From UHGV virus genome UHGV-0237462: DNA of 30,991 nt. One strand, 5' to 3'. Of this stretch, positions 1,314 through 12,175 are shown piece after piece. Every line of letters starts with the position of its first letter. Position 1 is the first letter of the stretch. The notes beneath the pieces are model-generated. The model was not told the DNA's origin, made no database searches, and saw nothing but the letters and a program-made list of their open reading frames with translations. This stretch comes from a virus. Made by a program: the position numbers and the translations under genes.

Positions 1314-2414
1314 TTATTCCATCTCAAGATCACCAATCCTCACTTCAAGCTCAAGACTGGTCGTAAAACCGTTATCCGGGCTGACGGTATGTGTCAGAGT
1401 CGTAATGGTCCATTCCGCATCATCTATCGGCTGTTTAAAGCCACTGACCTTCACAGGCATTTCTGTGTAGAGGTCTGCCCGCCCTTCCGCCAGTTGTAGC
1501 GAGAATGACGCAACACCGCGTTGCAGGCGTTCCCACTGCATTTTCGCCGCTCGTTCAGCGTTGCCCCAGTTGGCATAGGTACGATTAAGTACCAGCACGT
1601 TTTCATCCGTACCCACCAGGTAATCGCCCTGCTTCGCTTCCGGCTCTTTCTTCTGCTTCTTAGTCCTGCGCTTACGCTTCACCGTGGTGCTTTCTTTCTT
1701 CGCGGGTTCGCGGGTATGCAACCAGCTGGCAATTACGCCCGTGTAGGCTCCGCGATCTGCCAGGGTAAAGCGGTGACTGTCGCCGTCCTTGCGTGTGATA
1801 GTGATCACCGGCAGTGGTTTACCGCTGGCGCTTTTACCCTGTCCCTGTCGGATAAATAACAGATTGCCATTTTTCACCGACGCAATAGCACCGTACTGGC
1901 GCGCCAACCGCATCAGAAAACTGCCGTCACTCTCATTGGTCTGGTCTATATGTTCCACGGGTTTATCTGACAGGTCTTTACCCAATGCCATCTTCAGTTT
2001 GTGCCGCGCAGCTATTTCCTTCACCACTTCCCCAACGGTGGTCTTGTGCCACGACTTTTCACGGCGGGTATTCAGTGTTTCACGAAAATCAGCACTTCGC
2101 GCCCGGATAGTCAGGCGGTCCGGTGCGCCAGTGTGTTCAATCTCGTCCACCGTGAATGCCCCTTTCGGGAAAAGCGGCTGCCCCTTCCAGCCCAGCGCCA
2201 GCGTAATGACCGCACCACGGCGCGGCAGCGCTATTTTTCCATCGGCGTCGTCCAGCTCCAGATCAAGCTGGTCCGCTTCAAAGCCCCGGTTATCCGTCAG
2301 CGTCAGCCTCATCAGGCGGTTATCCAGCACAGTGGTGATATCCCTGCCCTCAATACTGATGCTGAATGCCGGAGTTTTGTTGCCTTTGTTAAGCAGTTCA
2401 GAGCTGAAATTCAC
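1314..2414 (-). CDS. D: Tail protein gpD (late control D)
   Basis: 366 aa, position between U and ogr, P2 gpD-like sequence; GTG start overlapping U stop. Confidence 0.9.
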   Translation of the reverse strand: MNFSSELLNKGNKTPAFSISIEGRDITTVLDNRLMRLTLTDNRGFEADQLDLELDDADGKIALPRRGAVITLALGWKGQPLFPKGAFTVDEIEHTGAPDRLTIRARSADFRETLNTRREKSWHKTTVGEVVKEIAARHKLKMALGKDLSDKPVEHIDQTNESDGSFLMRLARQYGAIASVKNGNLLFIRQGQGKSASGKPLPVITITRKDGDSHRFTLADRGAYTGVIASWLHTREPAKKESTTVKRKRRTKKQKKEPEAKQGDYLVGTDENVLVLNRTYANWGNAERAAKMQWERLQRGVASFSLQLAEGRADLYTEMPVKVSGFKQPIDDAEWTITTLTHTVSPDNGFTTSLELEVRIGDLEME

Positions 2415-2896
2415 GACAGCAGCCCTCCCACCGTTTTACTGATATCACTTAAGGCAGATGTTGCCGTGTCCTGCAGATTATTCAGTTGCGTACTGAGATC
2501 ACCGAACATATCGGACAGGGATTCATCCACCCGTTTGAGCGACAGGGTGAACTCAATCCGCCGCGGCATACCGTCGCGGAAAAACTCCGTTTTAGTCAGA
2601 TTCAGTCCCTCAATCACATACATGCCGTAAATCGTGCCGCTGCCTTCAATCAGGGGCCATGCTTTTCCCTGTTCTGCCATCTGCTCCAGAGCCAGCAACG
2701 ACAGCCTGCCGCCCGTTATCTCCGGCATAAGAACACCAGAAAGCGTCAGCATGTCGTTGTCCGGTCCCAGAAACTGCGTGGACGGACGACGGTTTACCCG
2801 GCTGTTTGCCGCATGTCGCCAGCTGCGTTGATACTGCAGTTCCTGATACGGAACGGTGCGCAGCATAAACACGTACAATCCCAGCACCATCATCAT
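2411..2896 (-). CDS. U: Tail protein gpU
   Basis: 161 aa; synteny T-U-D; start overlaps T stop. Confidence 0.9.
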   Translation of the reverse strand: MMMVLGLYVFMLRTVPYQELQYQRSWRHAANSRVNRRPSTQFLGPDNDMLTLSGVLMPEITGGRLSLLALEQMAEQGKAWPLIEGSGTIYGMYVIEGLNLTKTEFFRDGMPRRIEFTLSLKRVDESLSDMFGDLSTQLNNLQDTATSALSDISKTVGGLLS

Positions 2897-5800
2897 GCGT
2901 CGTATCCCCCCTGATCGCTGTAGTTACTCCTGGCTTTTGCCTTCAGCCTGCGTTCACGTTCATCAAGCTGGCGTGCCACCTCCCGCGCAATATCCTGCGC
3001 ACTTTGTCCTGGCTGCATCTGAATGATGATCTGCGTCGGTGCCTCAATCCGGTGAACGGGCGGCACAGTGGCTGCACGACTCACCATCGCTTCGCCGCCT
3101 TTCGCGGGAAGTGCCAAAGGATGCAACGGTGGAAGCTCTGCAGGCGCGGCAGCAACGCCCATCATTCCGGCAACAACGGCAGCCAGTGCAGCTGTATTTC
3201 TCCGGCTGGTCACATTTGCCGGGCCGTTAACAATTTCCGGCCCGTTTTCACCGACGATGCCAAACTGCCCGCGCGGGATATAGCCGCCGCTGTCATACAT
3301 CCCCGCAAAGCCATATCCCCATGACGGAAAACCACCCGATGGCATCATCACTTTGCCGTCTGCATTCACCGTCGCAGGTTGCTGACGCGTCACGCGTTCC
3401 GGCAGTTTTGCCTTTGCGGCCTCTTTACTGACAATGCCGAGTTTTTCCAGCAACCAGGATACGCCGGATTTCAGGGAGTCCAGCGGATGCATGACCATAT
3501 TCAGCCCTTCCGCCAGTGCCTCCCCGAATCGCCGCCCCATTGCCGCTGCACTCTGCAGTTCGGCAGAGGTCGACTTAACGGGCGTCAGCAGATCAGTAAA
3601 CCAGCCCCACAACGCCTGTACTTTGTCGCCAATCCACTGGAACACGGGCTTAAGCGGCTCGAATGCTGCACTGACGGGACCTGCCGCCGCTTTGAATCCT
3701 TCCACCACGCCACCAAGAAATGCGGTGATGGGTTGCCAGTATTTCCAGACAACCAGCGCCACGCCCGCCAGTGCAGTAACCACAAGACCTATCGGACTGA
3801 GCAGAGCACCTAACAGACCAGATACGGCATACAGGGCAACGCGCAGCATCGCCAGTGGACCAGATGCCAGTACTCGCAGCACCGTGCCTGCGGCGGCCAG
3901 TCCACCGCGTAGTGCTGCCAGTGGATTCATAAACATCACAGCAACCGCACGTAAACCGGATAATCCAGACCGCAAAAGTGCAACCGGCGCACCTGCTACA
4001 GTTTTCAGGACATTTCCCGTCAGTGATGCCGTGCGGCGCAAAGACGACAACAGCGCAGTAAGTAAACCTGCGGCGTTGCCCGATGAAGCAAGCCCGCGTC
4101 GCAGCAGTGCCAGTGGTGCGCCAGCCAGCCAGGACAACGCGCTGCTGGTTCGAGTTACTGCTGCCGTAACGGAAGGTAACGTTTTGATACCCAGCACAGA
4201 GAATCCCAGACGGATCACTGCCAGCGGCCCCAGAACTGCAGCCAGCGCCACCGCTAAGGTGCCGAGGCCTACGGTAACCGCAGCCACAACAGCCGCTACT
4301 TTCATCAGTGTGCCTGTCAGTTCCGGGTTAGCTTCCACCCAGCGGCGCAACGCCCCCGTGATGCTTTTCACCGTGTACAGAATATCCATCAGCGGCTGGC
4401 GCAGCGTTTCGCCCAGGCTGCTGAAGGTGTTCTGCGCTCCGGTTTTGACCAGCAACCACTGAGCAGAAAGTGAGTCTTTGTTGATGTCGGATTCTTTCTG
4501 CATGGAACCGAGCGCATCATTGCCCGCTGTCAGCTTTAACTGGCGCTGCAGTTCCGGCAGGTTGTTTGCCAGTTTCGCCGCGTCATCGCCAAACTCTTTA
4601 CCAAACAACATGGTCATGGCAGACAGACGCTTGTCCTGCGGCAGTGCGTTCACCTTCTCCAGCACGCGCTGGATGGTTCCCATCGCATCCTTCGTCATCT
4701 GCTTTTCAATCACTTCAGGATTGAGTTTCAGCAGATTCATCCCTTCAAAGAAACTCTTGCTTTGCATGGTGGCAATGGACAATTCACGCACCATCGCGTT
4801 TGCTGCACTGGCTGCAACCTCTGGCGCAGCGCCCAGTGTCAGAAAGGTGGAACCCAGCGCCGCCGCTTTACGATAATCCAGACGATCAGCCACACCGCCC
4901 AGGCGTTGCATGACATCAATGATGTCTGCCCCTTTCGACATGGCGTTATCATCCAGATAGTTCAGCGCATCACCGAGCTGTTCAATATTGCGGGTAGGGA
5001 TTTTGTAGAGCTGGGCGATTTTCCCCAGACTTTCTGACAGTTCATCCGCTGGCAGCTCAAAGGCTGTTGCCGCCTTTGCTGCCGTACTGGCGAAGGCCAG
5101 CAGGTCACGTTTCTGGTCTTCCCAGCTGTCGTCAGGGTTTGCGACGTTCATGCGTGCACCACCTTCAACCAGTGCAGCGAAATCCACCGCACCGTTTTCC
5201 ATCGGCAACTGTTCGCTGGCAGCCTTGATGGCATCCTGCATTTCATAAAAACGTGCAGTGCGGTTGCCATTATCGTCACGCAGACCATTGACCTGCTTTG
5301 CCACACCTTTCATGGCATCTTCTATGCTGGTATAGCTTTTTACTGCCGCCATCACTGGCGTCCCCATTGCCAACCCTGCAGCCGTGGTAGTGGCTCCGGC
5401 TCCTGCAATACGATCGCGCACCTCCAGCGAACGGGCATAACTGGCACGCGCCGCATTCATCCTGCGCTGAGCTTCCCCCAGTCGCTTCAGCCGCGCCTCC
5501 TGTTTCGACAGTTCCTGGTTATAACGTGATGTTTCACGGGCTAAACGGGCAGTTGCTCCCGCATCATCTTTCGCAGAAATTCCCGCCCGGTACAGTTCTG
5601 CACGCACAAGCGCCGTTTGCTTCTGCAAATATTTTTGTTGTTCTTCCAGGCGTTGGACTGCCAGCGTTTGCCGACCTAAAGCCACAAGGTGCCGTTGTGA
5701 TGGTTGTTCCATCGCCTCCAGCTCAGAGCTAAGCAAATTAGCCTTCTGTCTGGCATAGTTCAGCCTGTCGCCTAACTTCTTGTTATCGGCCTGCAGCTTG

Positions 5801-5970
5801 CGAAATTTTTCCAGGCTGTTACCCGCCTGATTGAGTTGCTTTAATGCGTCACGGGAGTTTCTGATTGCGCCAGCCAGCTCTTTCGAACTGGCTTGTGCAG
5901 CACGGAATGGGCGGGTGAGTTTGTCAACCGCATTAAGAATGACCTGCAGGCGCAGGTTGTTATCACTCAT
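2893..5970 (-). CDS. T: Tail tape measure protein gpT
   Basis: 1025 aa, coiled-coil N-terminal half, Ala/Gly-rich hydrophobic repeats in the middle; position after E/E-prime. Confidence 0.9.
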   Translation of the reverse strand: MSDNNLRLQVILNAVDKLTRPFRAAQASSKELAGAIRNSRDALKQLNQAGNSLEKFRKLQADNKKLGDRLNYARQKANLLSSELEAMEQPSQRHLVALGRQTLAVQRLEEQQKYLQKQTALVRAELYRAGISAKDDAGATARLARETSRYNQELSKQEARLKRLGEAQRRMNAARASYARSLEVRDRIAGAGATTTAAGLAMGTPVMAAVKSYTSIEDAMKGVAKQVNGLRDDNGNRTARFYEMQDAIKAASEQLPMENGAVDFAALVEGGARMNVANPDDSWEDQKRDLLAFASTAAKAATAFELPADELSESLGKIAQLYKIPTRNIEQLGDALNYLDDNAMSKGADIIDVMQRLGGVADRLDYRKAAALGSTFLTLGAAPEVAASAANAMVRELSIATMQSKSFFEGMNLLKLNPEVIEKQMTKDAMGTIQRVLEKVNALPQDKRLSAMTMLFGKEFGDDAAKLANNLPELQRQLKLTAGNDALGSMQKESDINKDSLSAQWLLVKTGAQNTFSSLGETLRQPLMDILYTVKSITGALRRWVEANPELTGTLMKVAAVVAAVTVGLGTLAVALAAVLGPLAVIRLGFSVLGIKTLPSVTAAVTRTSSALSWLAGAPLALLRRGLASSGNAAGLLTALLSSLRRTASLTGNVLKTVAGAPVALLRSGLSGLRAVAVMFMNPLAALRGGLAAAGTVLRVLASGPLAMLRVALYAVSGLLGALLSPIGLVVTALAGVALVVWKYWQPITAFLGGVVEGFKAAAGPVSAAFEPLKPVFQWIGDKVQALWGWFTDLLTPVKSTSAELQSAAAMGRRFGEALAEGLNMVMHPLDSLKSGVSWLLEKLGIVSKEAAKAKLPERVTRQQPATVNADGKVMMPSGGFPSWGYGFAGMYDSGGYIPRGQFGIVGENGPEIVNGPANVTSRRNTAALAAVVAGMMGVAAAPAELPPLHPLALPAKGGEAMVSRAATVPPVHRIEAPTQIIIQMQPGQSAQDIAREVARQLDERERRLKAKARSNYSDQGGYDA

Positions 5971-6978: not shown

Positions 6979-8151
6979 TTACGCGCTGACCTGGCTGGAG
7001 AAATTCACCAGGTACTGATCGGTGATGCGCTGACGCAGCATCAGGTTTTCAAGTGGCGGCACTGGCGTGTAGTCGTAGTCGATGGTGAGCTTCCCGGCTT
7101 TCAGAGTATCTTTGTCGTTCACCGACTCATCCAGCCAGCAATCACCACCAATGAGATAGCCCTGACTGACCAGGCTGCGCATTTTGGCGCGGATACCTTC
7201 GATAATGTCGCGGGCCAACGACGGGTTCAGCGGTTTGTCCACCGCCCACATATGCGCTTCTGCCATTGTGTCCATAAGTACTTGCGCCGTGCGGGTGTAG
7301 TTTTCGAAGGCAAAGAGCGGGTCATCACTCAGGCAGCGGGAACCCCAGAAGCGGAAACCGTCTTTGCGGATAAGGGTGGTGACGTCGTTCTGGTTCAGCA
7401 GTCCCGCATCTGTTGCCGTGTCCTGCAGATCCCAGAACACATCAGCAGAAATTCCGGTGACACCGTTAACGCCCACGTTGGACAGGCTTTTGTGCCATCC
7501 GGTCTGCTCATCAATTTTGGCGCGCAAACCAAGCGCACGGGCGGTGGCATAAGCCGTTGCTTCGGCATTCAGCACCGTGTCCCAGCCAGTAAAGTCGGGC
7601 CAGATCAGCATTCCTTCACGCTGACTGAAGTTTTCACGGTAAGTGATCGCCTCCTGCACTGTCTTGCAGCCATACGCTGACAGGTAAGCAAACCCACGCA
7701 GGCTTTGCGCCACGCTCAGCAACTCAGTAGCAACGGCTTTGTTATCGTGGCCTGGCACGCCGAGAATGCGCGGTTTAACGCCGAGCTGTGACTGTGCAGA
7801 TAACAGAGCTTTCATGCCTGTTTTTTTACCTTCAGCAGTCACTGCGCCGATGATATTGGTCGTGGTTTCTTCTTCCGTTTCACCCTGCGGCACACGCACA
7901 ACAACGGTCACGGGTTTTGCCTGGTCAGCGATGGCATCCAGCGAACGGGCCAGCGTGCCGGACTCACCCGCTTTACCGCTGGCAGTCAGCACATCAGTGA
8001 TCAGCACGGGTTTATTAAGAGGAAACATTTTTGCATCGGCATCATCGCCCGTGCAGACCATACCCACGATGGCGGTGCTCACCGTGGTAATGGATCGGGT
8101 GCCTTCGTTGATTTCAACAACGCGCACCCCGTGGTGGTAATCCTGAGCCAT
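6979..8151 (-). CDS. FI: Contractile tail sheath protein gpFI
   Basis: 390 aa; P2 FI-like sequence and position. Confidence 0.9.
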
Positions 8152-8227
8152 AGCGGCGAACCTCCTGATTGGATTAGGCTTCGCCCTATGTTGAAGTGAT
8201 TGTGCCTGACAAACAGCTAAGCGCAGT

Positions 8228-8245
8228 TGTGTCGTTATTCACACA
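8228..8245 (-). promoter_or_regulatory. Candidate Ogr-dependent late promoter element (TGT-N12-ACA dyad) upstream of FI
   Basis: TTGTGT (8227-8232) ... ACACAA (8241-8246); TGT at 8228-8230 and ACA at 8243-8245 give TGT-N12-ACA; centre about 85 bp upstream of the FI ATG. Confidence 0.5.
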
Positions 8246-8293
8246 AAATGACGGTATTTGCCTACTTGCAGGGATAATCAAAATAATGCTGAT

Positions 8294-8860
8294 TCAGGGG
8301 GATTCATTACTCTTATTTGCCGGAAATTTTCTATAAATGGTAGAAACGCCTACATCAAAAATCAGTGCAATACGCTGTCTTGATTCTCCGGCCTCGAGTA
8401 AACGCCCAATCTGTGCCCACTGTTTGGTGGTCAACTTAGGACGGCGTCCACCTACTCTGCCTTTGGCACGAGCTGCAGCCAGCCCTGCCCTAGTACGTTC
8501 AACTATCAGTTCGCGTTCCATTTCAGCCAGGGCCCCCATGACATGAAAAAAGAAACGGCCCATTGGGGTGCTGGTATCAATACTGTCAGTCAGGCTTCGG
8601 AAATTCACGCCACGCTGACGCAACTCTTCTATCAGCGTAACAAGATGCCGCATACTGCGCCCCAACCTGTCTAGCTTCCAGACAACCAGCGTGTCTCCTG
8701 CCGATAGTGTCCTGAGCAGTTTTTTCAGCCCCGGTCTGTCGGACTTAGTGCCACTGATTTTATCCTCAAAAATCCGCTCACATCCCGCGCAGTTCAGTGC
8801 ATTACGTTGCAAATCGGTGTTCTGGTCATTTGTTGACACGCGTACATAGCCAATAAGCAT
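8294..8860 (-). CDS. Serine-recombinase DNA invertase (Gin/Pin/Hin/Cin family)
   Basis: 188 aa; N-terminus MLIGYVRVSTNDQNTDLQRNAL and GRFFFHVMGALAEMERELI are near-identical to Gin/Hin invertases as I recall them; C-terminal HTH. Confidence 0.9.
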   Translation of the reverse strand: MLIGYVRVSTNDQNTDLQRNALNCAGCERIFEDKISGTKSDRPGLKKLLRTLSAGDTLVVWKLDRLGRSMRHLVTLIEELRQRGVNFRSLTDSIDTSTPMGRFFFHVMGALAEMERELIVERTRAGLAAARAKGRVGGRRPKLTTKQWAQIGRLLEAGESRQRIALIFDVGVSTIYRKFPANKSNESP

Positions 8861-8915
8861 GATTATCCCCCTGAATAAAAACCGGGGATGATGCCAGTTA
8901 GCTGTTACCTCTGCA

Positions 8916-8941
8916 TTTTCTTAAACGTTGGTTTGGGAGAA
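8916..8941. repeat. Left (invertase-proximal) 26-bp inversion crossover site
   Basis: TTTTCTTAAACG TT GGTTTGGGAGAA: 12-bp half-sites around a 2-bp core, gix/hix/cix-like; the inner half-site is the exact reverse complement of the inner half-site of the partner at 10512..10537. Confidence 0.7.
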
Positions 8942-9271
8942 GCCAGATATATCATTCAGCGAGGAGCTAATGCCAATGGTGCATGGATTCGCTGGTCAGA
9001 TGGTGCAATAGAAGTCTTTGGAACGGGTGGGTCTAATGATAATGGACTGGCTAAAGTCGTTTACCCAATTGCACTGCCTAAACTTTCACGTTTTATCAGT
9101 ATCGCGGAAAGAATAAGAACAGATTACGAGAGCACACCTAATAATGTTCACGTTTCAATGATCGTGGATGATCAGGTAACAAATACCGGTTTTTATGCCC
9201 GCTGCCAGATGTACGACGGCAGACCATCATCAAATGCTTTTTCCTGGAGGGTTTATTGTGCGCCTGTTTAA
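8930..9271 (+). CDS. Silent alternative tail-fibre C-terminal cassette (no own start; would fuse to the H constant region after inversion)
   Basis: Open frame from the crossover core to TAA at 9269-9271; the codon phase at the core (G TT) matches the phase of H at the partner core (C TT), so inversion would give an in-frame H constant part plus 113 new C-terminal residues beginning GLGEARY. Confidence 0.6.
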   Translation, partial: GLGEARYIIQRGANANGAWIRWSDGAIEVFGTGGSNDNGLAKVVYPIALPKLSRFISIAERIRTDYESTPNNVHVSMIVDDQVTNTGFYARCQMYDGRPSSNAFSWRVYCAPV

Positions 9272-9455
9272 TCCAGTTACTTTGACTGAAGTAATCCCCG
9301 GCCTTCATGTTGTGACCGGGGCTATTGAATTACCGGAGGACAACTGGTTTTTTACTATGACAGAAATTCCTCAGGGCATGGAGCTAACAATTAATGAGAA
9401 AGGGGAACCAATATTGATTGAGGTTAATCAGTCTCAGGGAAAGCAGGCCAAATAA
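9258..9455 (+). CDS. Putative alternative tail-fibre assembly chaperone, apparently truncated (about 65 codons)
   Basis: GTG at 9258 preceded by GGAGG (9246-9250) with a 7-nt spacer; start overlaps the stop of the alternative fibre cassette; lacks the C-terminal TSTAPDIxWP-type motif present in the 201-aa chaperone; 3' end overlaps the 3' end of the convergent chaperone gene. Confidence 0.4.
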   Translation: MRLFNPVTLTEVIPGLHVVTGAIELPEDNWFFTMTEIPQGMELTINEKGEPILIEVNQSQGKQAK

Positions 9456-10029
9456 TATCAGGCGCGGTGCTGGTATCTGTTGCCGTCACCGCGTCAATGT
9501 AATCCAGCACGGCGTTAAGCCGGGTTGTTTCTGCCTGCATCAGCTTCCGTCCGGCCTGTAATTTCAGCTGAATCAGACTGATGGAAGCTATTGCAGCATC
9601 AATCAGTGACTGACGCTGTGCTTCTGCCGCGTCTACTGCGGCGCTATGCCGTGCCTCAGTATCGGTCACCCATTTCTCACCATCCCATTTATCGTATGGT
9701 GTTAACGGGGCGATAGTTGTGGTATTTTCAGGGTAATCACCCGGAGCTGTGATTTCTTTTGACTCTCCCGTTTTGGTGCTATAGACGATTTCACCGCGAT
9801 GGTCTGGCACATATTCCCATGAGTTAAAATTTGCAGAACGACAGATAGCATAACCCACCTTATATGTGCCAGGGGCATCTAAACAGGAATATGCAGGAAT
9901 ACCGACACCAATGGCAAGATATTCAGTTGAAGCTGAAATATATTCCTGCGTCTCACTATCATAGTTATAAACGGTAATATCCCCCGACTTTGTAGCAATA
10001 AGCTCACTATTTAATATTGCTTTATCCAT
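9424..10029 (-). CDS. G: Tail fibre assembly chaperone (P2 gpG / lambda Tfa family)
   Basis: 201 aa; C-terminal LDYIDAVTATDTSTAPDIIWPAFP is characteristic of Tfa proteins; start overlaps H stop. Confidence 0.85.
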   Translation of the reverse strand: MDKAILNSELIATKSGDITVYNYDSETQEYISASTEYLAIGVGIPAYSCLDAPGTYKVGYAICRSANFNSWEYVPDHRGEIVYSTKTGESKEITAPGDYPENTTTIAPLTPYDKWDGEKWVTDTEARHSAAVDAAEAQRQSLIDAAIASISLIQLKLQAGRKLMQAETTRLNAVLDYIDAVTATDTSTAPDIIWPAFPETD

Positions 10030-11573
10030 TATGCTGCTCTCACGATATAGTTAAATGCAATGTTTCGAGGGCGATTCTCTGATGCTGTTGGTACAACCCT
10101 GGATGCATCAAAACTGAATCCTGTGTAAGGGGTATTTTTTGTTTCATATGTGCCTAGGTTATTATAGATATTTCGCTTAGCTTGAGATGCTAAGGCAAAA
10201 GCACCAGTACCAGTCTGTAACCTGAAAGTTGCTGTATCAATGGTGCCTTTAACTTCATTTATAAATCCTGTTATATTCCGAATGGTATCTCCCTGTGACG
10301 AAAGCAAGCTACGGTTAGTATCAATCCCTCTTCCATCATCCCAGCCACGAATAAACTCACCGCGTAAATCAGGCAATTTATTTGTCGGGTAAACCTTTGC
10401 CAGTTCCGGGTATTCTTCAGCAGAAAAAGCCGCCCCGTTGCATTTCAGCCAGCCTGTTGGCGGAGTGGCGGAAGGCCACGGAACAGGCACGCCAACGGGT
10501 AATGCCGAACCTTCTCCCAAACCAAGGTATGTGAGAAGACCAGCTACATCCTTTCCACTCAAATTAGTCAGCGTATTGTCCAGCGGTTGTTTACCTGCCA
10601 GCGCATTAAGCATTGTCGTGGCAAAGTTCGGATCATTCCCCAGTGCCGCCGCCAGTTCGTTCAGTGTATCCAGTGCCGCAGGTGCAGAACCCACCATTCC
10701 TGCAATCGCCGATTTCACAAAAGCCGTAGTGGCAATCTGTGTATTATTGACCGACTGCGCCGCCGTAGGGGCTGTTGGCGTTCCGGTGAGTGCCGGACTC
10801 GACAGCGGCGCTTTCAGTGCCAGCGCATTGTTAATGGTGGTACTGAATTTCGGATCATTGTTAATGGCTACGGCTATTTCTTTCAGCGTGTCCAGCGTGG
10901 CTGGCGCACCATTAATAAGGGCCGTCAGTGCCGCCTGTACAAACGCAGTGGTCGCAACCTGCGTGGTATTATTCCCCGCCGCTGGCGTTGGCGCTTTGGG
11001 GGTTCCGGTAAATGTCGGGCTGGCTTTTGGCGCGTACTGTGAATGCGGGTCCGGTGCGGCAAGATGTTTTGCCATCTGATCATCCGCGTACACCTTCAGC
11101 TCCAGTGCCTTGTCATCCACATACTTGCGGGTTGCCAGCACTACAGCAGGGTCGATTTTCAGGGTGATATTGTCCGTGCTGCTGGTAATCAGCACCATGC
11201 GCACGGTCTGAGTGCGCCCGCTACCTTCAGCCAGTTGCGGCTTATAGCTTTCCGGGCAGTTGCCCACGGCAATCAATGCCCCGGACTCATCAAACAAGCC
11301 CACTTCACGTATCCACCAACCGCCCTCGTTTTCAGGGATCACCTGTTCGGCAATAATCTGGCTGCTGTTCTGCGGGTCGATATAAAGCATATTCAGCGCA
11401 GCCCGGCGTTTCTCATTTACCAGTGCCGTCTGCTTTGCGTCCGGCGTTGGCAATACTCCACCGCCATCGCCCACCGCCATATGGGTAATTTTTAGCGGCA
11501 CACCGAGCGCGGCGGCGCTGGCAAGTTTCGCCGCGCCAATATCCGTCAGCAGGGTATAAAATTTTGTGCTCAT
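10029..11573 (-). CDS. H: Tail fibre protein gpH (constant N-terminal 350 aa plus invertible C-terminal 164 aa)
   Basis: 514 aa; synteny I-H-G; contains the inner crossover site at codon 350. Confidence 0.9.
   Translation of the reverse strand: MSTKFYTLLTDIGAAKLASAAALGVPLKITHMAVGDGGGVLPTPDAKQTALVNEKRRAALNMLYIDPQNSSQIIAEQVIPENEGGWWIREVGLFDESGALIAVGNCPESYKPQLAEGSGRTQTVRMVLITSSTDNITLKIDPAVVLATRKYVDDKALELKVYADDQMAKHLAAPDPHSQYAPKASPTFTGTPKAPTPAAGNNTTQVATTAFVQAALTALINGAPATLDTLKEIAVAINNDPKFSTTINNALALKAPLSSPALTGTPTAPTAAQSVNNTQIATTAFVKSAIAGMVGSAPAALDTLNELAAALGNDPNFATTMLNALAGKQPLDNTLTNLSGKDVAGLLTYLGLGEGSALPVGVPVPWPSATPPTGWLKCNGAAFSAEEYPELAKVYPTNKLPDLRGEFIRGWDDGRGIDTNRSLLSSQGDTIRNITGFINEVKGTIDTATFRLQTGTGAFALASQAKRNIYNNLGTYETKNTPYTGFSFDASRVVPTASENRPRNIAFNYIVRAA
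10512..10537. repeat. Right 26-bp inversion crossover site, inside gene H
   Basis: TTCTCCCAAACC AA GGTATGTGAGAA; inverted orientation relative to the site at 8916..8941. Confidence 0.7.
10581..11021 (-). repeat. Tandem duplication of a ~73-aa module inside tail fibre H
   Basis: Protein residues ~185-257 and ~258-331 are clearly similar (PTAP..NNTTQVATTAFV..GAPA.LDTL.E.A.A..NDP.F.TT..NALA.K.PL). Confidence 0.5.
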
Positions 11574-12175
11574 GGATTCACTCTCATTGTGTCAATAACA
11601 TGGACCGCCCCGCCTTCATGCGCGGTGCCACCGGAAATAATCGTTTCGTTGATATACGGATAGATCGTGATTTCTTCGCCAAGATAGCTGGCGGCTCCCA
11701 CCCAATGCGGGCCGCTGGTCTGCAGATTGATGGACATGCCGATCATGTGGCGGCTACATGGTTTGGCATCGCTTATCAGTCGCTCAAGTTCCAGATAGGT
11801 ATCTTCAGTGATGCCCTGGTCCTGCACGCCGATATCCAGGCGAAACGTGCCCGGTGTTTCTCCGGTCTGCCACCACTCAATAATGCGGATCAGGAATCCG
11901 AACGGCTCCACCACCCGCCGCACGGCACTGGTGGTCCCTTTATGCTGATGAATATAAAAAGCATCCTTCACCACCTGGCGCTTGACGCTTTCTGTCCAGC
12001 CCTCGTCCCAGCGATCCACAGAGAACGCCCAGGCGAGATAAGGCAGGAAACTGACCGGACAGGTTGCCGGATTCCACAAGTCACGAAGCGGCACCTGCAG
12101 ATCAGAAATCCCGCTGCAGGTTTGCGCCAGTCGGCGCTCCAGTGGTGTTGAACCCGGTGGCAGCAGACTATTCAT
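11570..12175 (-). CDS. I: Baseplate assembly protein gpI
   Basis: 201 aa; synteny J-I-H. Confidence 0.9.
   Translation of the reverse strand: MNSLLPPGSTPLERRLAQTCSGISDLQVPLRDLWNPATCPVSFLPYLAWAFSVDRWDEGWTESVKRQVVKDAFYIHQHKGTTSAVRRVVEPFGFLIRIIEWWQTGETPGTFRLDIGVQDQGITEDTYLELERLISDAKPCSRHMIGMSINLQTSGPHWVGAASYLGEEITIYPYINETIISGGTAHEGGAVHVIDTMRVNP

Follow-up and report, generated by a model that had tools for sequence, protein, structure and literature searches.

A Gin-type invertible tail-fibre tip segment in the P2-like prophage UHGV-0237462

Known Fibre Switches and the Setting of the Locus

Knowledge of Gin/Pin-type fibre switches goes back to the 1980s, and among the closest described systems is the G segment of phage Mu with its invertase Gin and its gix sites. 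Both in Mu and in the locus described here, two 26-bp sites of the same half-site pattern bound the segment, one of them within the fibre gene at the boundary between its constant and variable parts; the two opposed cassettes each hold a fibre tip and an accessory gene, and the invertase gene stands immediately beyond the segment, at a distance of 47-55 bp from a site. The alignment with the Mu gix sites (TTATCCAAAACC TC GGTTTACAGGAA and TTCCTGTAAACC GA GGTTTTGGATAA) that an earlier note on this DNA had called for showed a shared half-site pattern and a different core, which is GA/TC in Mu and AA/TT here. Further differences are the length of the segment (3.06 kb in Mu against 1.6 kb here), the type of phage (Mu-like against P2-like) and the constant part of the fibre (~170 aa in Mu S against 350 aa). 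Moreover, the second cassette of Mu encodes a U'-type assembly protein, whereas the one described here encodes a 65-aa protein of another, unnamed family.

Salmonella Hin with its hix sites belongs to the same enzyme subclass and likewise uses 26-bp sites with a 2-bp core, but the segment that it flips carries a promoter in place of a coding end and includes the hin gene itself. The enhancer of the Hin system lies within the 5' end of the invertase gene. The P segment of e14 in E. coli K-12, with its invertase Pin, likewise switches fibre tips by means of a Hin-family enzyme, although e14 is a lambdoid defective prophage; in this case the comparison was by the published repeat only (AAACCTTGGTTTGGGAGAAGG), which has its inner half-site and core in common with the sites here. 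The P2-type prophage of EPEC E2348/69 has the same gene order of fibre, segment, invertase and sheath (Goldberg et al., 2014; PMC4272514), and its invertase is 80% identical to the one described here. It differs in being a remnant, with the constant part of the fibre replaced by an integrase fragment, and in its second cassette, which combines a canonical Tfa with a gp53-like tip. Within the Peduoviridae, Cartapus (backbone 96.5% identical over 86% of 25 kb), 500465-1, KP12, 'P2' of O157:H43 T22 and S164 share both backbone and slot, and are annotated alike with a DNA invertase or 'Mu phage Gin invertase homolog', two fibre tips and two assembly genes. They differ from the present prophage in their variable cassettes; the cassette of 113-aa tip and small ORF described below has a counterpart, a distant one, in S164 alone.

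The window analysed here, that is, the whole 30,991-nt stretch of UHGV-0237462, is a P2-like (Peduoviridae) prophage. Its invertase and silent cassette lie between the gene for fibre assembly and FI, the sheath gene, and gene-order comparison places fun(Z) of P2 itself in the same slot, between G and FI. The earlier note was therefore right to place the switch where P2 has Z/fun, and its statement that the class is known holds for Cartapus and the other phages named above. A Gin-type fibre-tip switch with a 1.6-kb segment is an ordinary, well-known kind of phage switch, here in a known slot. The discovery value is small, since the position is already annotated in this way in several Peduoviridae and flipping has been shown experimentally in E. 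coli P2-type prophages with matching sites.

Crossover Sites

The invertase-proximal crossover site lies at 8916-8941 (TTTTCTTAAACG TT GGTTTGGGAGAA, 2-bp core at 8928-8929) and the distal site, inside the tail-fibre gene H, at 10512-10537 (TTCTCCCAAACC AA GGTATGTGAGAA, core at 10524-10525); neither is assigned to a strand. Read in reverse complement, the inner half GGTTTGGGAGAA (8930-8941) is identical to its counterpart TTCTCCCAAACC (10512-10523), and the cores correspond in the same way; this gives the two imperfectly palindromic 26-bp sites, inverted and with equal 2-bp cores, that an invertase of this type uses. The pair is the top-ranked inverted repeat of 8100-11700 (27 nt, 81%), and in a scan of the whole window both members match the Hin-family consensus TTNTCNNAAACCNNGGTTTNNGANAA at 17/18. 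No third crossover site was found in the 30,991 bases, where the next-best consensus score was 12/18, and scores in shuffled windows (n = 100) never exceeded 15. The window thus contains exactly two sites, far beyond chance. Direct reading and the repeat and consensus scans agree with the earlier note on the position of both sites, their inverted orientation and the exact complementarity of their inner halves. The proximal site is identical at 26/26 positions to that of the EPEC E2348/69 prophage, whose distal site has the same inner half and core as the distal site here.

Multi-site shufflons with more than two fibre variants do occur among relatives: one EPEC P2-like prophage has three repeats, phage FRφ has three tips (deletion of gin locks its tail-fibre shufflon), plasmid p15B Min is a further case, and some related loci (L016, L034 and L066) contain a third site. 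In this prophage, however, no more than two sites in the window score 13/18 or better against the consensus, and just two opposed cassettes make up the segment, which makes a shufflon extremely improbable here.

Between the proximal site and the start of the invertase gene, a pattern scan detected a weak hairpin followed by a T-run (8880-8899, minus strand). It is a possible terminator of the fibre operon, an assignment that is tentative because such patterns were no more numerous than in shuffled sequence. Since the hairpin lies outside the segment, it would serve both orientations.

The Fibre Gene H and Its Two Ends

Gene H (10029-11573, minus strand) is an ORF of 514 aa. Its constant N-terminal part (10524-11573, minus strand; 350 aa) lies outside the segment, contains the Pfam Phage_tail_fib N-terminal domain (6.5e-65) and is collinear with E. 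coli W, Cartapus and 500465-1 irrespective of what the segment contains. The variable C-terminus that is currently expressed (10029-10523, minus strand; 164 aa, beginning GLGEGSALPV) has a Pfam Collar domain at H residues 361-408 and matches phrog_523, tail collar fibre (1e-73). Its cassette also contains a tail-fibre assembly gene (9424-10029, minus strand; 201 aa) equivalent to P2 G and Mu U, with matches to Pfam Caudo_TAP (3.5e-30) and phrog_105, tail fiber assembly (2e-94). The silent alternative C-terminus (8930-9271, plus strand; 113 aa, beginning GLGEARYIIQ) sits in a 127-aa ORF (8888-9271, plus strand), in which NV directly precedes GLGE, and is promoterless in the present orientation. 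It matches phrog_2557, virion structural protein (3e-15), and weakly Gp53-like_C, and is unrelated in sequence to the expressed tip with its Collar domain.

At both sites the 2-bp core forms codon positions 2-3 of the respective frame. In-silico inversion of 8928-10525 brought the silent tip in frame with the constant part and gave an uninterrupted H of 463 aa (350 + 113) in place of 514 aa (350 + 164). ORF reading and in-silico inversion thus reproduce what had been noted before, namely that the cores fall in codon positions 2-3 and that the last 164 residues are exchanged for a 113-residue end, both beginning with GLGE. The constant part lies outside the segment, the alternative ends lie inside, the frame is kept either way, and both forms are annotated as intact in RefSeq genomes.

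Both Orientations in Public Genomes

The present configuration, with the invertase beside the silent 113-aa end, was found in 70 E. coli genomes in RefSeq, and the recombinant junction between the constant part of H and the 113-aa end in 34 complete E. coli genomes; in one state or the other, the 113-aa cassette is intact in 104 genomes. In E. coli W the segment is inverted, and the breakpoints fall at window positions 8928-8942 and 10511-10537. In this strain and 33 other genomes the tip forms the end of an intact H of 463 aa, annotated as 'phage tail protein', a putatively functional fibre. Two sibling pairs have opposite orientations, namely strains 82.0312 and 82.0311, and the assemblies labelled DH5alpha (CM135829 and CP026085). 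In both pairs the flanks are 100% identical (1.5-2.7 kb per side), and the segment of one member matches the reverse complement of the other's with 1 mismatch. The orientation switches within overlaps of 15-18 bp that are the crossover sites, and at the proximal site the breakpoints also fall within 8928-8942.

RecA recombination between repeats, or an error in assembly, could be put forward to explain the two public orientations, as each complete assembly reports one orientation only; nothing else specific points that way. RecA recombination is understood to need repeats well above 15-18 bp, which is all that the identical repeat spans here, and the breakpoints coincide with consensus invertase sites. 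A contig ends at a crossover site in 20/80 related loci, and many homologues of the small ORF of the second cassette are on contigs of ~1.6 kb, the length of the segment, both as expected from mixed-orientation reads. Published paired-end data and PCR further showed that both orientations coexist in clonal cultures of EPEC E2348/69, with 93±4% forward, and the inversion coordinates given for its P2-type prophage (2977580-2979467) fall exactly on both core dinucleotides (PMC4272514). The chance that RecA or misassembly accounts for the orientations is, in our view, vanishingly small. Inversion in vivo is observed in near-identical prophages and, for the identical EPEC sites, by published sequencing, and the genome comparison shows the switch to be in use in prophages nearly identical to this one.

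The Invertase

The DNA invertase gene (8294-8860, minus strand) encodes 188 aa of the Gin/Pin/Cin/Hin subclass of serine recombinases. The protein has the resolvase catalytic domain with nucleophilic serine (Pfam Resolvase PF00239, 2e-53, residues 3-135) and the C-terminal HTH (HTH_7 PF02796, 3e-15, residues 138-181) of small serine recombinases, and matches phrog_125, DNA invertase (1.6e-100). It is nearer to invertases than to resolvases (312 bits with Gin vs 121 bits with gamma-delta resolvase), and among solved structures it comes closest to Mu Gin (3UJ3/4M6F; E 8e-93, 184 aa aligned at ~75% identity). Ser9 is present in the motif GYVRVSTNDQ; the aligned Gin residue 9 is Ser in 4M6F and an engineered Ala in 3UJ3. 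At the helix-B positions that correspond to those which Hin needs for activation by Fis and the enhancer, the protein has the basic residues K47 and R50. The claim of a Gin/Pin-type invertase beside a 26-bp site is thereby confirmed. The catalytic serine is kept and both orientations occur in relatives, so neither a dead enzyme nor a single orientation speaks against the switch. A 12-nt perfect inverted repeat flanks the gene (8292-8303 / 8865-8876) and was set aside as lineage-specific or due to chance, since chance alone would produce ~0.4 repeats of this kind in the 3.6 kb searched; it is confined to the same 188-aa allele and occurs in no other homologue.

The protein is identical at 187/188 residues to RefSeq WP_000905033.1, the allele of the sibling-pair prophages, and the sole difference is K146 here vs E146 there. 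A simple scan found no convincing sigma-70 promoter for the invertase, counts in the promoter and terminator scans not being above shuffled background. Both observations would fit a frozen relic in which sites and invertase are intact, the switch is idle in this prophage (the invertase being silent or impaired by K146) and the silent cassette is decaying. Residue 146 is not conserved, however, and is A in Mu Gin; the sites keep 17/18 of the consensus with perfectly matching cores, and the ORFs of the silent cassette are all intact here, as is the cassette in the 104 genomes. A relic therefore seems unlikely. Invertase, two inverted 26-bp sites, a constant fibre part outside and two opposed cassettes inside support the Mu G-segment-type reading proposed in the earlier note, and every element of such a switch is present and intact.

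Candidate Recombinational Enhancer

The search for a Fis-type enhancer that had been proposed gave a divided result. A plain Fis-motif scan of the 5' region of the invertase gene produced many weak matches and was not discriminating. Since the scan could not locate an enhancer alone, we turned to synonymous-site conservation among 70 non-redundant relatives of the gene, and this yielded candidate 15-mers in two islands of constraint. Within the first 390 nt, third-codon-position conservation was highest at nt 18-39 (0.88) and nt 66-93 (0.80), with an overall mean of 0.567. These two islands of suppressed synonymous change may be the two putative Fis sites of an enhancer. The candidate enhancer (8776-8839, minus strand) contains two G-N13-C 15-mers, GTGTCAACAAATGAC at 8825-8839 (minus strand; gene nt 22-36) and GCGCGGGATGTGAGC at 8776-8790 (minus strand; gene nt 71-85), both of which are present in Mu gin too. 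Their centres are 49 nt apart and lie 96.5 and 145.5 bp from the centre of the proximal crossover; in the Hin enhancer the Fis sites are spaced 48 bp, centre to centre.

In 80 relatives from many genera, the proximal site lies at a fixed, helically phased distance from the gene, quantised in ~10-bp steps with spacing classes of 67, 76, 87 and 97 bp, and the partner site lies 1-3.5 kb off with a co-varying core dinucleotide (AA/TT or GA/TC). The synonymous-site footprint, the phased spacing and the covariation of the cores are in line with the invertasome model developed for Hin and Gin, and we infer that inversion depends on Fis.

The Small ORF of the Second Cassette

Downstream of the silent tip lies a small ORF (9258-9455, plus strand; 65 aa) that matches phrog_5400, to which no function is assigned. 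Its product is presumed to be the partner of the silent tip; phage S164, too, has such an ORF downstream of its homologous tip. The 113-aa tip and the small ORF are separated by an IS3 element in E. coli W. The two cassettes do not each have a U/Tfa-type assembly gene of their own: the first encodes Caudo_TAP and the second only the 65-aa protein, which showed no similarity to lambda-type Tfa and matched no Pfam family. As the match covers positions 1-66 of the 145 positions of phrog_5400, a truncated assembly gene was considered, and rejected since homologues across many genera are ~57-65 aa long. The protein belongs to a conserved family of that length across Enterobacterales with the pattern MRLFNPxTxTEVIPGxHDxxGAIELPxDNWFF...GEP and 17 invariant residues in 26 sequences. 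Its AlphaFold2 model (pLDDT 75.9) has five short strands, and a Foldseek search of the PDB with the model had no match with E below 0.5, and hence gave no functional lead. The protein may be functionally equivalent to an assembly protein without being a member of the family. Tentatively, and with somewhat less than even confidence, we suggest that the second cassette is a distinct module, in which a short gp53-like tip of 113 aa needs a beta-rich protein of ~60 aa, and not a Tfa of the lambda/Mu type, for folding or attachment. If so, the switch would alternate two tip-maturation systems as well as two receptors.

Proposed Mechanism and Implications

We consider it very likely that the locus as a whole works by Gin-type inversion of a fibre-tip segment in a P2-like prophage. 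Invertase dimers would bind both 26-bp sites (8916-8941 and 10512-10537) and synapse on a Fis-bound enhancer that probably lies in invertase codons 8-29. Staggered 2-bp cuts at the matching cores, rotation and religation would then invert 8928-10525. Because the distal site lies inside H at codon 350, this would swap the last 164 residues and the lambda-type assembly protein for the 113-residue tip and its 65-aa partner protein, leaving the constant shaft, the promoter and the reading frame unchanged. With the tip swapped on a constant shaft, a lysogen population would make virions with two receptor specificities, a form of host-range bet-hedging; that the two tips recognise different receptors is what we infer.

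For annotation, this means that the 'hypothetical protein' beside the invertase is the silent end of the fibre and no free-standing gene, and that the fibre gene of the prophage is to be given as two alleles. Host-range prediction for such phages needs both fibre alleles.

Gene Layout of the Tail-Fibre Region

All late genes of this region are encoded on the minus strand: the baseplate gene I (11570–12175), the tail-fibre gene H (10029–11573), a tail-fibre assembly gene (9424–10029), a recombinase gene for 188 amino acids (8294–8860) and the tail sheath gene FI (6979–8151). The assembly and recombinase genes have two plus-strand ORFs between them, one containing ...NV GLGEARYIIQ... (8888–9271) and one encoding 65 amino acids (9258–9455). 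The Peduoviridae phage Cartapus is 96.5% identical to the first 25 kb of the window, with 86% of the length covered. In P2 itself fun(Z) occupies the interval between G and FI, and therefore the earlier note correctly placed this region where P2 has Z/fun.

Three further elements were observed around the invertase gene. Upstream of FI, a TGT-N12-ACA motif, TGTGTCGTTATTCACACA at 8228–8245, has its centre about 85 bp from the start codon. This position matches that of the activator-binding site annotated for the late promoter pF in P2, which lies ~83 bp ahead of FI. A weak hairpin followed by a T-run (8880–8899, minus strand) occupies the gap from the proximal crossover site to the start of the invertase gene and is not part of the invertible segment; it could act as a fibre-operon terminator serving either orientation, as a pattern match not above background. 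Lastly, a perfect 12-nt inverted repeat, ATTCAGGGGGAT / ATCCCCCTGAAT at 8292–8303 and 8865–8876, flanks the invertase gene and overlaps its Shine-Dalgarno region and stop codon. This repeat occurs only with the 188-aa invertase allele, Cartapus and phage 500465-1 included, and was absent from all other invertase relatives checked; it is possibly due to chance.

Crossover Sites and Reading Frame

The earlier note claimed two inverted 26-bp crossover sites, one beside the invertase gene (proximal, 8916–8941) and one inside H (distal, 10512–10537). Read directly from the window, both sites are exactly as described, and they form the top inverted repeat of the region. Each window position was scored against the Hin-family consensus TTNTCNNAAACCNNGGTTTNNGANAA, with 100 shuffles as control. 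Both sites scored 17 out of 18, the next best window position 12 and the best of the shuffles 15. A multi-site shufflon, as in Enterobacter phage FRφ where deletion of gin locks a three-tip fibre shufflon (2025 study), has little support here.

The cores are TT at 8928–8929 and AA at 10524–10525, the same dinucleotide in inverted orientation, and both fall in codon positions 2–3 of their reading frames. After in silico inversion of 8928–10525, H remains open over 463 codons: its product keeps residues 1–350 and has 113 different residues in place of the final 164. Both variable parts begin with GLGE. The frame logic and all numbers of the earlier finding were thereby reproduced.

Both Orientations in Public Genomes

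The predicted recombinant junction (H constant part with the 113-residue end) was searched in 5,426 complete E. coli genomes. It was found in 34 of them, over at least 80% of the length at ~96–97% identity and annotated as an intact phage tail protein; the window configuration, with the invertase beside the silent end, was found in 70. The prophage is also present in E. coli W, there with the segment in the opposite orientation, and its alignment to the window switches from collinear to inverted at 8928–8942 and 10511–10537, inside the sites. Two pairs of sibling assemblies give the strongest evidence for flipping, namely strains 82.0312 / 82.0311 and two records labelled DH5alpha (CM135829 / CP026085). 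Within the pairs the protein accessions are identical throughout and the flanks 100% identical, and a middle segment of 1.57 kb or 2.83 kb is inverted with a single mismatch. These opposite orientations, with breakpoints in the sites, support the interpretation as a Gin-type fibre switch; a frozen relic has little support, and the same holds for RecA recombination or an assembly artefact as the source of the inversions.

In the DH5alpha-labelled pair an IS3 element also lies inside the segment, and the enlarged 2.8-kb segment is still seen in both orientations. This IS3-family element separates the 113-aa tip from the small ORF in E. coli W and in the two DH5alpha-labelled assemblies, at 2260–3437 of locus L001, 2760–3937 of locus L008 and 4664–5841 of locus L009. 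The latter assemblies are 4.83 Mb and probably mislabelled, because their protein accessions in this region are identical to those of E. coli W.

Among 80 loci with invertase relatives, a contig ends exactly at the crossover site in 20 (L013, L019, L020, L025, L039, L041, L046 and 13 others). Many homologues of the small ORF are on contigs of ~1.6 kb, the segment length, and draft assemblies often place the invertase gene or the ~1.6-kb segment on a separate contig (proteins P0010, P0016, P0019, P0025 etc.). Such breaks are expected when reads of both orientations interrupt assembly, and they could be screened for systematically as a sign that a sequenced culture contained both orientations.

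Experimental evidence exists for a closely similar system. Both orientations coexist in clonal cultures of EPEC E2348/69, inside P2-type prophages (Goldberg et al., 2014; PMC4272514), and one of the inversions (NC_011601, 2977580–2979467; 93±4% forward) is listed in Table S1 of that study. The gene order there (fibre tip, Tfa, Tfa, gp53-like tip, recombinase, sheath) is that of the window. The invertase-proximal site of the EPEC prophage is identical to that of the window (26/26) and the distal site has the same inner half and core. The published endpoints are exactly the two central dinucleotides, and thus the crossover positions inferred here are those observed experimentally at identical sites.

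The Invertase and a Candidate Fis Enhancer

The recombinase contains a resolvase catalytic domain and an HTH_7 DNA-binding domain, with the catalytic serine present in GYVRVSTNDQ. RefSeq protein WP_000905033.1 is identical at 187 of 188 residues, and among relatives with a solved structure Mu Gin is the best match (E 8e-93; ~75% identity over 184 residues, counted from the alignment). Allowing for the difference of one residue between Hin and Gin numbering, K47 and R50 are basic at the helix-B positions aligned to Hin. Work of the Johnson laboratory showed that these positions are needed for Fis/enhancer activation of Hin.

The earlier note pointed to the 5′ part of the invertase gene for a Fis-type enhancer. 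A simple Fis motif scan of this part was uninformative, and therefore synonymous variation was measured across the invertase relatives (80 loci in many Enterobacterales genera, 62–90% identity), scored per codon in 70 non-redundant genes. Third-position conservation averaged 0.567 over the first 390 nt and was highest at nt 18–39 (0.88) and nt 66–93 (0.80), giving islands of low synonymous variation at codons 7–13 and 23–31. For Ser9, which is six-fold degenerate, 97% of the sequences share a single codon, and for Thr10 94% do so. Each island contains a G-N13-C 15-mer on the minus strand, GTGTCAACAAATGAC at 8825–8839 and GCGCGGGATGTGAGC at 8776–8790, with centres 49 nt apart; Mu gin also contains both. 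The islands in 8776–8839 are thus likely the footprint of two enhancer Fis sites, with Fis binding inferred from conservation.

In the relatives (L013–L092), the proximal site and the gene are spaced by 67, 75–77, 85–88 or 97–98 bp without intermediates, in steps of about one helical turn. This is suggestive of a helical-phasing constraint among loci that are not phylogenetically independent. The proximal and distal core dinucleotides co-vary, AA with TT and GA with TC. The invertasome model developed for Hin and Gin agrees with the spacing classes, the co-varying cores and the contig ends.

The Two Cassettes

The two cassettes differ in make-up. The expressed one is of the conventional type, pairing a Collar-domain tip with an assembly protein of the lambda type (Caudo_TAP). 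In the silent cassette, the 113-aa tip resembles the C-terminal end of phrog_2557 and has a weak match to Gp53-like_C. RefSeq treats this silent end (8888–9271, plus strand) as a gene in its own right, named ‘hypothetical protein’ or ‘phage tail protein’ and starting at an ATG outside the segment, which is most likely an annotation artefact of the promoterless cassette.

The 65-aa ORF comes directly after this tip, in the place expected for a fibre-assembly gene. It matched no Pfam family, showed no similarity to Tfa proteins and belongs to a PHROG of unknown function. That it is a fragment was rejected, as its homologues are all ~57–65 aa; they occur in Escherichia, Enterobacter, Salmonella, Citrobacter, Hafnia, Xenorhabdus and Erwinia, with 17 invariant positions and the core MRLFNPxTxTEVIPGxHDxxGAIELPxDNWFF...GEP. 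The structural model (pLDDT 75.9) has five short strands and no fold match in the PDB. The pairing of this tip and small ORF recurs in phage S164, and from its position we guess that the 65-aa protein is a partner of the 113-aa tip.

Neither the kind of system nor its genomic position is new: it is known classically from Mu, P1 and e14, by experiment from the EPEC P2-type prophages, and by annotation at the same position in Cartapus, 500465-1 and others. Only the comparative by-products and the uncharacterised small protein are mildly new.
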